Of a stretch of DNA of 32,000 nucleotides, positions 13,301-17,151 are shown one piece after another. A program made the translations under genes and the position numbers. How positions within the stretch are numbered: the first letter of the stretch is position 1; every line of letters starts with the position of its first letter. This stretch comes from Promethearchaeia archaeon (GTDB lineage Archaea > Asgardarchaeota > Lokiarchaeia > Sigyniarchaeales > SOKP01): contig JAWOFX010000106.1 in NCBI GenBank assembly GCA_046497275.1, forward strand, positions 93 to 32,092, in the 5' to 3' direction. The notes beneath the pieces are model-generated. The model worked only from the letters and a program-made list of their open reading frames with translations, had not been told where the DNA came from and did no database searches.

Positions 13301-14482
13301 ATGAAATGTTATATTATTGACACTTTGATTGGATTATTTGCGCAAGATAATCAAGGGAATTTATTAAATTTTAGAAATTTTAATGATCAAACAGAAAGCG
13401 CAATAAATTTCTTCACAAAACTCGATCAAGGAGAATTATTAGAAGAATATATAAATCTTTTGGATGAATTAACAAATTCTGGATTTGATACATTTATATT
13501 TGATAATGAAAATCTGAAAGCTGCGACCTCAGAAAAATTACATATAAATGCCAAATTAGAACCATCATCCTTAGAATTTAAGAATTTTAGATCCAACCTT
13601 CTTGAGAAATTAAAAACAATTGGATTGAACTACACTGAACAAGAAATTAAAAAAAGGTATAAAAAGATAAGCCAAGAACTTATACGGCAAAAAGTTAGAG
13701 AGGCAGGTGAAGAAAAGGATATATTTATTGTTCAAGTAATCGAGATATTAGATTCTCTCAAAGAAGCAATAAGTCAATTTTCAAGTCGCTTGAGGGAATG
13801 GTATGGCTTACATTTTCCCGAACTCACCGATAGGATTATTGAGGATAATATATTATTAGCCGAAATTGTTGCAAAGGTAGGAAACAGAAAAAACTACAAT
13901 GAAGAAGTTTTTAAAAACGGATTTGAAATTCCCCAAAGATTAATAGAGAAGTTAATAAATATGTCCACGAAATCAATGGGAGCAGATATCAATCTCAAAA
14001 TGGTTAAAGATTTCGCTCAACAGATTCTCTCAATCAATAATTATAGAATATCTTTAGAATCATATTTAGAGGATCTTATGTCCATAACGGCACCAAATAT
14101 TCAAGCTATTGTAGGATCTCTCATAGGTGCAAAATTAATCGCAAAAGCAGGAAATCTTCGAAAATTAGCATTTATGCCAGCTTCAAGAATCCAACTTTTA
14201 GGAGCTGAGACCGCGTTATATAGACATTTAAAATCGGGACAAAAGCTCCCCAAACATGGAATTATTTTTCAATGGCAGCAAATTCGTGGAAATCCCCCTT
14301 GGATACGGGGGAATATAGCGAGATTAATTGCTGGTAAACTGGGGTTAGCAGCAAAAATAGACTATTTTTCCGGAGATTTTGTAGGGGAAGAATATGCAAA
14401 AGAGATTGAAGAAAAGATCGAAGAAATAAAGAAAAAATATCCAACACCTCCCGAAAGAAAACCAAAGAAAAAAAGGAAATAA
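13301..14482 (+). CDS. nop5: Box C/D sRNP core protein Nop5 (Nop56/58 homolog)
   Basis: RLREWYGLHFPEL, APNIQAIVGSLIGAKLI, PASRIQLLGAETALYRHL, PKHGIIFQ, RGNIARLIAGKLGLAAKID, basic C-tail. Confidence 0.96.
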   Translation: MKCYIIDTLIGLFAQDNQGNLLNFRNFNDQTESAINFFTKLDQGELLEEYINLLDELTNSGFDTFIFDNENLKAATSEKLHINAKLEPSSLEFKNFRSNLLEKLKTIGLNYTEQEIKKRYKKISQELIRQKVREAGEEKDIFIVQVIEILDSLKEAISQFSSRLREWYGLHFPELTDRIIEDNILLAEIVAKVGNRKNYNEEVFKNGFEIPQRLIEKLINMSTKSMGADINLKMVKDFAQQILSINNYRISLESYLEDLMSITAPNIQAIVGSLIGAKLIAKAGNLRKLAFMPASRIQLLGAETALYRHLKSGQKLPKHGIIFQWQQIRGNPPWIRGNIARLIAGKLGLAAKIDYFSGDFVGEEYAKEIEEKIEEIKKKYPTPPERKPKKKRK

Positions 14483-14499
14483 TGAGTTGATATGATATA

Positions 14500-15192
14500 A
14501 TGAATAATATTAAAATCCGAAAACACCCAAAAATATATAATGTATTTGTATCGGGGCCTTTATCCAATCCGCGTTTATATACAAGGAATTTAGTTCCTGG
14601 AAGAAAAATTTATGATGAAAAATTAATTGAGGTTGATGGGATTGAATATAGAAGCTGGGATCCCAAAAGAAGTAAATTAGCGGCTATTTTTATAAATGAT
14701 CCCTCAATTAGTTTTTTGAGAAAAGCTAATAAATGTTTGTACCTAGGTGCCGCTTCAGGGACTACAATTTCACATCTTAGCGATATTTTACCTAATGGAA
14801 TAATTTATGCAGTAGAATTTTCTGAGCGCAGCATTCGACAATTAATTCAAAATACTTCAGATAGAAAAAATGTAATTCCTATATTAGCAGATGCACGCTA
14901 TCCAGTAGATTATGCAAATGCCATTTTTACTGATATTGATTTAGTCTATCAAGATGTTGCTCAACCAAATCAATCTGAAATTATAGTTAAAAATATGGAT
15001 TATTATCTTAAAAAAAATGGAACTTTTATCTTTCTAATAAAATCACAATCAATTGATAGTATCTCAAAATCAGAGAAAATTTACAGCGAGGAAAAAAAAA
15101 TTCTCCAAAAAGCAGAGTATAAAATACAAGAAAGTATCAATATTCATAATTTCGCTAAAAATCATATAGCTTTAATTGGAGAGAAAAAATAA
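14500..15192 (+). CDS. flpA: Fibrillarin-like rRNA/tRNA 2'-O-methyltransferase
   Basis: EYRSWDPKRSKLAA, LYLGAASGTTISHLSD, YAVEFS, NVIPILADAR, YQDVAQPNQ; directly after nop5. Confidence 0.97.
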   Translation: MNNIKIRKHPKIYNVFVSGPLSNPRLYTRNLVPGRKIYDEKLIEVDGIEYRSWDPKRSKLAAIFINDPSISFLRKANKCLYLGAASGTTISHLSDILPNGIIYAVEFSERSIRQLIQNTSDRKNVIPILADARYPVDYANAIFTDIDLVYQDVAQPNQSEIIVKNMDYYLKKNGTFIFLIKSQSIDSISKSEKIYSEEKKILQKAEYKIQESINIHNFAKNHIALIGEKK

Positions 15193-15258: not shown

Positions 15259-15982
15259 TTATTCATTAAAATATTGAGTTATTTTCCTATTATAAAGCTC
15301 TAAATCCAAGATTTTTTTTGTTGTCTGCCATGTTTTTCGAGCAAATGTTGGTGCTCTTTTTTCGATACGGATCCATTCTTTTAAAAAATTTATAGTAAGC
15401 TCATCAGAGGGATATCCTGAGCCAAGATCTGAATATCCCATATTTAAATATTTTTCTCGCAAGGAAGTTATAATCATATCGCGTTTATGTTTTGCAATGA
15501 TTGACGCTGCTGAAACGATGGGATAATTTTCATCTGCCTTATGCTCTGATATTAATTTTAGAGGTTTATAATCTAATTTTTTACCAATCAAATTTTTAAA
15601 TTTTTCCGCATTCGTATCGGCAGCATCCATATAAACTATGTCTGGCTTTAATTCATTGATTATTTCTGCAAATTTATTCATTTCGAGGCCATTTAAATTA
15701 ATATCATTATCAAATCTTTTATCAATCTCTTGAGCAGATATAACTAACGAATCATAACACACACAAGCATTTTTTATTAATTTAGAAAGATTTGCACGCT
15801 TTTCTGGACTCAATAATTTAGAATCTTTTACTCCAATCTTTTCGAGATAATGTAAATTTGATTGTGCAAAACAAACACCGCAAACAACCAGTGGACCTAA
15901 TACGGGGCCTTTTGGGCAATTAGGCGATATGCCTTAAATAACTCCCAGCCTCGTCAATTCCACAGATTAAAAAATCTTTCAT
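15259..15982 (-). CDS. rnhB: Ribonuclease HII, interrupted by a 31-nt putative intron: join(complement 15942-15982, 15259-15910), 230 aa
   Basis: Removing 15911-15941 gives [52 protein letters not shown]..., in frame with the track ORF 15259..15813. YMDAAD, HKADE, VSAASIIAK, GSGYPSD and a C-terminal PIP-like RKITQYF are all intact. Confidence 0.93.
15911..15941 (-). other. Putative bulge-helix-bulge (BHB) mRNA intron
   Basis: Pre-mRNA ACGAGGC-UGGG-AG/U-UAUUUAAGGCAUAUCGCCUAAUUG-CCCA-AA/A-GGCCCCGU. Central 4-bp helix UGGG:CCCA, two 3-nt bulges (AGU, AAA), and cuts after bulge nt 2 give exactly the frame-restoring junction AG^A (Arg). Confidence 0.85.
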
Positions 15983-16128
15983 TATAATATTATCAGATTT
16001 GTGTAAAAATTCGATTTTAATTAATATATTAAAACATTTTAATCGATAAAAAAATAAATATTGTTATATAATAAAGCAGTAATAAAATATTATTGGAATA
16101 CTTAGAGATATCGAGTTTTAATACAATT

Positions 16129-17151
16129 CTAATTAATTGAAGTAGATTTTTCTGAATCTTGTACGAGGTTTATGAATTCTTCCTCATCATCGATTTTTTC
16201 TAATTGTTTAATCTTAATAATCGGAATTTTCTCCTTCGGAAGATTTTTAGGTATTTTTATACCATTATTTATGATAAATATCGCTTGCTTATGAAACAAA
16301 TTTGTAAGGATTTTTAAATTTTGTAGGCATTTTAAATTGATCTCCTTAATTTTTTCTTTTTCAGAAACCTCAGAGAATAATGGATAAAATTGATTTTCTA
16401 TATCTACTTCCAAATTTTTGGAAGAGAGTAAGACTTCGAAAGGGAATTGCCTTTTATACCAATATGATTTTATACCAATATCTTCAATAATATCTCGAAG
16501 ATGTTCCTCAAAAGGACTTAATTCTTTTTCTTTTTCAATAGTCAATTTTTCGAAATCGAATTTAAAATGCCAATCTAACACATCTATATTTCGTACAAAA
16601 GAGTTAGAGCCCAGAGCTTTTCCAAGTTTCTCGGCAATCTCCATTGAGGGTCTCATATTTTCGCTTTCATATGAGCAGAGAGTTCTTTTTGTTATTCCAA
16701 TCTGATCTGATAATTCTTTTCTAGATATTTTTTTCTCTTCCCTCAGTTTTTTCATAATATCTCCATCAAGAAAAACAACACCACCCCCTCTTCTAGCCAA
16801 AATATAGGGATAAAATCCTTCTCTTAATATTTTTTCTAAAGTATTTATATTGATAAAGGGTAAACCTTCTCGTATATATATTGTATTATCTTCCAGCTTT
16901 TGGTATCTATTTTTCATTCCAATAAGAAGAGGTTTTGATTTTAAAAGTTTTGAAAGTAATTTAATACCTTCAAGTATATCCTCATTAATATTATCGATAT
17001 TTGAAAATAATTTTACTATAAATACCAGATTATACTTCTTGACTAGAAAATCGTAGCAGTAGCTCTGTCTGTTAGTATTAAATCTGAATGAAAATGTTTC
17101 AAACTGTGCTTCATTTAATAGATGTTCAATTTTTTGTAAAATTTTTTCCAT
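16129..17151 (-). CDS. Archaeal HTH transcriptional regulator (COG1395-like, XRE-type HTH)
   Basis: N-terminal YDFLVKK...FIVKLFSNIDNI...KLEDNTIYIREG, RRGGGVVFLDG, HTH KLREEKKISRKELSDQIGITKRTLCSYESENMRPS. Confidence 0.85.
   Translation of the reverse strand: MEKILQKIEHLLNEAQFETFSFRFNTNRQSYCYDFLVKKYNLVFIVKLFSNIDNINEDILEGIKLLSKLLKSKPLLIGMKNRYQKLEDNTIYIREGLPFININTLEKILREGFYPYILARRGGGVVFLDGDIMKKLREEKKISRKELSDQIGITKRTLCSYESENMRPSMEIAEKLGKALGSNSFVRNIDVLDWHFKFDFEKLTIEKEKELSPFEEHLRDIIEDIGIKSYWYKRQFPFEVLLSSKNLEVDIENQFYPLFSEVSEKEKIKEINLKCLQNLKILTNLFHKQAIFIINNGIKIPKNLPKEKIPIIKIKQLEKIDDEEEFINLVQDSEKSTSIN

Follow-up and report, generated by a model that had tools for sequence, protein, structure and literature searches.

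A 31-nucleotide insert in the RNase HII gene of a Lokiarchaeia archaeon as a probable bulge-helix-bulge intron of the pre-mRNA

The gene for RNase HII (rnhB) in the archaeal DNA examined here is interrupted by an insert of 31 nt that, judged from its own sequence and from those of its relatives, is highly likely to be a bulge-helix-bulge (BHB) intron that is spliced out of the pre-mRNA. The DNA, referred to below as the window, is the whole stretch of 32,000 nt that was analysed (positions 93 to 32,092 of contig JAWOFX010000106.1, assembly GCA_046497275.1), and it belongs to the order Sigyniarchaeales of the Lokiarchaeia. In the transcript, an exonic UGGG would pair with an intronic CCCA between two 3-nt bulges on opposite strands, bordered by a hairpin within the intron and by a helix between the two exons. 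The splicing endonuclease, probably a two-subunit enzyme assembled from both of the EndA paralogs of this genome, would cut after the second base of each bulge, and RtcB would then join AG to A, forming the Arg codon of the motif DEAGRGP in an RNase HII of 230 aa. Since exon 1 holds two of the catalytic carboxylates, no active RNase HII would be expected without splicing, and very probably the enzyme can be made only after the tRNA-splicing machinery has cut and rejoined its mRNA. We infer cleavage and ligation in vivo from the sequence, from its conservation and covariation, from exons that are intact and from a genome that encodes the machinery.

The reading frame on the minus strand of the window defines the insert to the base. 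An ATG at 15982 opens a stretch of 13 codons that runs on into SYLRHIA and a stop codon, giving an unspliced product of 20 aa (ORF 15920-15982), and the large ORF downstream (15259-15813, minus strand, 184 aa, with a TTG start) is without the RNase HII N-terminus. Deletion of the 31 nt at 15911-15941 joins AG^A and yields GAC GAG GCU GGG AGA GGC CCC, which reads DEAGRGP, and the conceptually spliced product is an RNase HII of 230 aa. Only one deletion restores this motif, and it is the same as that given by the canonical BHB cut sites; the predicted spliced junction is GCUGGGAG^AGGCCCCG. A first-pass annotation, made from the letters of the window, had proposed this ATG, the early stop and the 31-nt deletion leading to a 230-aa RNase HII, and its coordinates proved exact to the base. 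The parts of the gene are as follows.

15942..15982, minus strand: rnhB exon 1, beginning at ATG 15982, with 13 codons plus AG, the first two bases of an Arg codon; it includes the Asp-Glu of DEAG
15911..15941, minus strand: predicted BHB intron of 31 nt; its first base completes the 5' bulge and its last two bases open the 3' bulge
15259..15910, minus strand: rnhB exon 2, opening with A 15910, the last base of the Arg codon, and continuing GPVLGPLVV..., with the stop codon at 15261-15259

Exon 2 by itself matches positions 9-199 of the 199 positions of the Pfam profile RNase_HII (PF01351, E 6e-41), profile positions 1-8 being absent, and in an alignment with two archaeal enzymes of solved structure, 1EKE and 1IO2, its translation (from 15909) starts at their residue 12. 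The residues of RNase HII that are absent from exon 2 are exactly those given by the upstream ORF of 13 codons, which includes CGIDEAG. The Asp and Glu of the DEAG motif are presumably the catalytic residues, as in the RNase HII of Thermococcus and Methanocaldococcus.

In the public records, the window gene (15259-15930, minus strand) is filed as an N-truncated 'ribonuclease HII' of 223 aa, and the public calls for most of the intron-bearing relatives are likewise N-truncated (204-213 aa), with starts inside or just after the intron and without DEAG. The gene lies downstream of one for a 340-aa PDDEXK_19 + HTH_3 protein (window 16129-17151, minus strand) and tail-to-tail with a pair of genes for Nop5 (nop5, 393 aa) and fibrillarin (230 aa) at window positions 13301-15192 on the plus strand. 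In the relatives, the C-terminal end of the PDDEXK_19 + HTH_3 protein, ...IDDEEEFIELIQES, is found directly upstream of rnhB, which indicates that the synteny of rnhB is conserved.

The elements of the motif in the RNA, with a slash at the predicted cut within each bulge, are listed here.

15902..15954, minus strand: whole hBHBh' motif (outer helix, two 3-nt bulges, central helix, intron hairpin)
15944..15947, minus strand: central helix, 5' strand UGGG, exonic, consisting of the third base of an Ala codon and a Gly codon
15916-15913, minus strand: central helix, 3' strand CCCA, intronic, pairing with UGGG 15947-15944 in 4 bp
15943, 15942 / 15941, minus strand: 5' bulge AG/U, cut at 15942/15941
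15912, 15911 / 15910, minus strand: 3' bulge AA/A, cut at 15911/15910
15940-15931 with 15925-15917, minus strand: inner stem (intron hairpin), with a 5-nt loop at 15930-15926
15954-15948 with 15909-15902, minus strand: outer exon-exon helix, with one bulged G and one A.C mismatch

This geometry, with UGGG:CCCA, the bulges AG/U and AA/A, the intron stem and the exon-exon helix, was found as the first-pass annotation had described it, and a cut after the second base of each bulge makes precisely the deletion that the protein requires. The inner stem of the window has one U.U mismatch and one bulged A, and this copy is among the less regular ones. The folding energy of the window motif is not above chance (MFE -17.3 kcal/mol, z = -0.06 vs shuffles); a fold in which neither bulge is paired costs 0.8 kcal/mol relative to the MFE, and the unconstrained MFE structure pairs the 5' bulge. 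Minimum free energy folding thus fails to single out the BHB, and the significance of the motif comes from comparative data, not from thermodynamics.

Such data are available from the close relatives of the organism. The pattern GAYGARGCNGGNAG-N24-40-AGGNNCNGT was searched in 154 genomes of the same order, and it matches exactly once in each of 78 of them, namely in 77 of 134 family members and in the window's own genome, with zero matches in 19 genomes of three other families of the order and none for the reversed-pattern control across the order. Five further copies in the family were found by eye; they include the variants AG/G and AA/A (Lys for Arg), and one lies beside a run of N. The rnhB gene was found in 127 of the 135 family genomes, as a single copy each time, and the presence or absence of the insert in these orthologs, which had been put forward as a check on the intron, was scored: 83 of the 127 carry it at the same codon and 44 are intronless. 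A relaxed pattern applied to 400 genomes of the phylum gave 11 matches outside the family, all of them unrelated and at about the rate of the reversed control. Outgroup genes and the intronless genes of the family read DEAGRGP without a scar, and the related rnhB loci found on other genome contigs, which come from distant archaea (no more than 45% identity), are all uninterrupted. The nearest named relatives by exon 2 protein are from Lokiarchaeota or Promethearchaeota MAGs, and the earlier suggestion of a probable Asgard host therefore holds.

The inserts themselves have the properties of sequence that is removed, and the exons those of sequence that is kept. Among 74 distinct copies, the lengths are 30 nt (70 copies), 29 (2), 28 (1) and 31 (1, that of the window), and all 74 contain an in-frame stop in the frame of exon 1. 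The variable lengths and the stops indicate that the insert is neither translated nor constrained by frame, as is predicted for an excised sequence. Conceptual splicing of the 80 complete intron-bearing genes yields in every case an ORF, 219-238 aa in length, with the start ...CG[IL]DEAGRGP. In the last 23 nt of exon 1, compared over 74 homologs, variation is found at third codon positions, except for one first position (I/V/L), all second and 7 of 8 first codon positions being invariant; this codon-periodic variation indicates that selection maintains exon 1 as coding sequence despite the stops between it and the main ORF.

A few family members depart from the usual motif, at the loci L210 (in G151) and L186 and L190 (in G060 and G059, respectively), and read DEAGKGP, with Lys (AAA), rather than DEAGRGP. 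In G151 the Lys codon itself is split by the intron (AA/A), which shows that either AG or AA can stand in the 5' bulge.

Removal of a BHB intron in the proposed way calls for both EndA and RtcB, and both turn out to be encoded, each in two copies, by the window's genome (G000; 3.85 Mb, 30% GC, 99% complete). Profile PF01974 gives two matches over the cut-off, in ORFs of 201 and 200 aa, located as follows.

G000:C46:30060-30665 and C168:8026-8628 (L131, L132): EndA paralogs, found with profile PF01974

Read by eye, one of these paralogs has the Tyr/His/Lys catalytic pattern and the other is without the His. Profile PF01139 finds two RtcB genes, both full-length (on C100 and C145; L212 and L213). 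Asgard archaea have been reported to have (alpha-beta)2 EndA enzymes with a broad-specificity L1 loop (PMC5829648), and the two paralogs are consistent with an endonuclease of this (alpha-beta)2, broad-specificity type. There are hints that the tRNA genes of this genome are heavily interrupted: ARAGORN calls only 26 tRNAs in a genome that is 99% complete, 14 of them with introns and several of these introns of 28-31 nt, and probably many tRNA genes were missed by the program owing to non-canonical or multiple introns. Comparison of the rnhB intron with the tRNA introns called by ARAGORN in the same genome, the boundaries of which are imprecise, revealed no obvious sequence family.

Similar inserts interrupt other genes of this genome. 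The P-loop of EF-1alpha is split between GHIDHG and KSTMMG by 32 nt (G000:C83:19094-19165, plus strand), with a helix AUGG:CCAU and the bulges UA/U and AA/A; exon 1 of this gene encodes MADKKPHLNLVIIGHIDHG, and EF-1alpha is single-copy, the sole other tblastn match in the genome being a paralog of 26% identity. The gene for RNA polymerase A' is split between CMGHFGH and IELARPV by 30 nt that contain an in-frame TAA (G000:C83:1622-1700, plus strand), with a helix GGGC:GCCC, a 9-bp stem, the 5-nt loop GGCUA and the 3' bulge AA/A. Canonical cuts restore the universal motif exactly in both genes (GHFGHIELARP in A'). In a UbiA-family DGGGP synthase-like gene (G000:C111, ~36455, minus strand), removal of a BHB-shaped insert of 30 nt restores the Asp-rich D..D.EIDKINRPERPI. 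Neither EF-1alpha nor RNA polymerase A' is expected to be dispensable; mRNA splicing of the BHB type must therefore work in this host, and these two split genes are the strongest indirect support for the splicing of rnhB. A blind scan of the genome for BHB geometry of the 3-4-3 form, run both with an ORF-fusion filter and without it, gave no enrichment relative to decoys (2-4-2, 4-4-4 and others); because chance hairpins at 30% GC swamp the signal, and because the rnhB intron itself fails the gapless-helix criteria, a scan of this kind cannot be used to count introns. Among its ten L=30 matches, only RNA polymerase A' and the DGGGP synthase are recognisable.

These observations bear on the possibility that EndA might cut the rnhB transcript and the halves be joined rarely or not at all, in which case the motif would be a cleavage site that destabilises or regulates the mRNA, and not an intron. 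Such a site would have parallels, as processing at BHB motifs is known beyond tRNA, from precursors of rRNA and from some mRNAs or UTRs (PMC7714728). We nevertheless regard this reading as very unlikely, since it would leave the genome with no functioning RNase HII and, on the same reasoning, with neither EF-1alpha nor RNA polymerase A', and since exon 1 could not be conserved as coding sequence unless it were joined to exon 2.

Also very unlikely is a gene that is N-truncated or a pseudogene, with the insert as a scar and the downstream ORF either translated from an internal start or giving nothing functional. Gene callers do annotate the locus in this way, with 223 aa in the window and 204-213 aa in many of the relatives, and some archaea can probably do without RNase HII. 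Against this, there is one rnhB copy per genome, exon 2 alone lacks the DE of DEAG (only Pfam positions 9-199 are covered), both exons remain intact in 80 genomes although the proteins diverge by roughly 50%, exon 1 is codon-periodic despite the stops, and the helices of the insert covary. Decay of rnhB in the orthologs had been named beforehand as an observation that would speak against an intron; the orthologs are not decaying, as judged from their intact spliced ORFs and from the codon periodicity of exon 1.

Covariation was counted on an alignment of the 74 distinct intron segments (alignment A1), over the 19 pairs of the BHB. In these pairs, 92.0% of the alignment cells form standard pairs. 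Shuffling of the columns gives 84.2 +/- 0.5, with 0 of 500 shuffles as high as the alignment itself, and a shift of the 3' partners over one to three columns brings the figure down to 25.7-45.1%; changes on both sides are seen in 11 of the 19 pairs. By helix, over the 74 sequences, the fraction of paired cells is 97.1% for the outer helix, 92.9% for the central helix (two-sided changes in 2 of 4 pairs) and 88.2% for the inner helix (two-sided changes in 8 of 9 pairs). Two of the pairs tie the third base of an exonic codon to the intron: pair 22-50, between the third base of the Gly codon and the first base of the intronic strand, occurs as U-G (38), G-C (13), C-G (12) and U-A (10), with 1 unpaired, and pair 19-53, which involves the third base of the Ala codon, occurs as U-A (53), A-U (4), U-G (4), C-G (3) and G-U (1), with 9 unpaired. 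Compensatory changes in UGGG:CCCA, suggested earlier as a test of the intron, are thus in evidence, since the proposed pairs covary with that helix included. Some relatives have a mismatch in the central helix, one per copy (9-11 of 74 at pairs 19-53 and 20-52), and the insert of G002 is without the base of the inner stem; copies with a central-helix mismatch or a weak inner-stem base imply an enzyme of relaxed specificity for part of the family.

It is a remote prospect that the ribosome hops over the insert by translational bypassing, as it does in T4 gene 60 or at the byp elements of yeast mitochondria. The resemblance is superficial, consisting of a short insert, a stop soon past the take-off region and a hairpin. 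A hop from Gly to Gly would remove the conserved Arg-Gly, and the Gly codons of the window, GGG at take-off and GGC at landing, differ and are not read by one tRNA; indeed, no matched take-off and landing codons yield DEAGRGP. Bypassing also needs neither the 3-4-3 BHB geometry nor covarying exon-intron pairs, both of which are observed.

An insertion of the 31 nt by an assembly or sequencing artefact, a legitimate question for a MAG, has a negligible probability and no support was found for it, as the rnhB insert is identical in an independent NCBI assembly, a contig from a DNA run spans 15891-16130 without a difference and homologous inserts occur in related genomes; the insert, for which assembly error had been raised as a check, is real DNA. 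The DNA contig came from the one DNA run that was compared beside three RNA runs; the gene is present in salt-lake metatranscriptome runs. The RNA contigs, from two studies, are 100% identical to exon 2 and end at 15882-15896, which is 14-28 nt short of the 3' splice site and before the intron and exon 1 are reached. In a collection of predicted proteins, a query with the first 70 residues of exon 2 gave no match, and the full exon 2 found the truncated call of its own gene (100%) and relatives of no more than 74% identity, with no spliced product.

The history of the putative intron was traced on a tree of 128 rnhB proteins, built by maximum likelihood and with five genes of neighbouring families, all intronless, as the root. 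The tree requires at least 14 changes between presence and absence, at least 8 of which are forced by well-supported branches; under shuffling the mean is 38.8 changes, and 0 of 500 shuffles are as low as observed. Intronless genes are sister to or nested among intron-bearing ones, as seen for G005 beside G006 and for G021 and G057 beside G010, and the intronless G101 is nested in the clade of the largest genus. The simplest history would have the intron gained once, close to the root of the family, and then precisely lost many times, with the intron about as old as the family and inherited vertically, though on the gene tree alone true loss and replacement by recombination with intronless alleles are inseparable. 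The repeated precise losses indicate that the intron is dispensable and argue against an indispensable regulatory role, so that it most likely persists because it is tolerated, not because it is needed as a regulator. The statement of the first-pass annotation that expression of RNase HII 'depends on' the splicing machinery is accordingly unsupported if it is taken in a regulatory sense.

The kind of intron proposed here is known, and its closest counterpart is that of the cbf5 pre-mRNA of Desulfurococcales and Sulfolobales (Watanabe 2002, Yoshinari 2006, Yokobori 2009 = PMC2738675), which is likewise short, of the BHB type and located in a protein-coding gene. The report on cbf5 in Crenarchaeota describes losses in particular lineages and connects the intron with endonucleases that are hetero-oligomeric (PMC2738675), and it bears out the earlier citation of cbf5 as the classic mRNA precedent. 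In both cases the splicing endonuclease of the host is hetero-oligomeric (probably so for the organism studied here), the intron is specific to a lineage with later independent losses, and gene callers routinely miss or misannotate it. The two introns differ in gene, phylum (Crenarchaeota vs Asgard) and sequence and hence are not homologous, being the same kind in another family. Unlike that of cbf5, the rnhB intron is mostly a strict hBHBh' with a stereotyped build of 30 nt (1 + 9-bp stem + 5-nt loop + 9 + 4 + 2), and it shares its genome with similar inserts in EF-1alpha, RNA polymerase A' and the DGGGP synthase. The splicing of cbf5 has been shown experimentally, whereas the case for rnhB is built on comparative evidence.

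Other systems offer more distant comparisons. The removal of the short mRNA intron of HAC1/XBP1 in eukaryotes (by Ire1 with RtcB or Trl1) resembles the rnhB proposal in being independent of the spliceosome and in using a stem-loop endonuclease and a tRNA ligase, but the endonuclease (Ire1) and the motif are different and the process is regulated by stress; no homology is implied. The BHB introns of archaeal tRNA and rRNA resemble the rnhB intron in size and share with it the recognition motif and the enzymes predicted to act on it, EndA and RtcB. Among Asgard archaea, the tRNA genes of Atabeyarchaeia and Freyarchaeia are very intron-rich (PMC11291895; bioRxiv 10.64898/2026.10.13.758758), with mRNA introns not reported there, and the literature that we found on Asgard introns concerns tRNA genes only. 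A full-text literature search found neither an rnhB intron nor an Asgard mRNA BHB intron, the only BHB intron of an mRNA that it turned up in print being that of cbf5; this agrees with the first-pass annotation, which had been aware of none in rnhB. The rnhB intron thus appears to be of a known kind in a new gene and a new phylum, and the wider phenomenon appears to be unpublished.

That wider phenomenon probably exists: the rnhB intron would be one of a population of stereotyped BHB mini-introns of ~30 nt in essential genes across the family (the EF-1alpha P-loop, RNA polymerase A' and the DGGGP synthase), with obligatory mRNA splicing by EndA and RtcB, accompanied by frequent precise loss, as a routine step of gene expression that has gone unnoticed because gene callers report such genes as truncated or split. 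The archaeal introns of protein-coding genes that are spliced by endonuclease rest in print essentially on cbf5 of Crenarchaeota, and here an Asgard enzyme of DNA repair and replication is split within its active-site motif, and EF-1alpha and RNA polymerase A' of the same genome are likewise split. The public annotations of 'ribonuclease HII' as N-truncated proteins of 204-223 aa are wrong, and wrong annotation of such genes biases the estimates of completeness and pseudogene content made for Asgard MAGs. With 83 genomes that have the intron and 44 that do not, and with at least 8-14 changes between the two states, the family is a tractable system for the study of intron gain and precise loss. 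Confirmation of splicing would mean that this lineage relies on the tRNA-splicing machinery for protein expression, and if the population of mini-introns is true, routine splicing of mRNA would take place in close prokaryotic relatives of eukaryotes.
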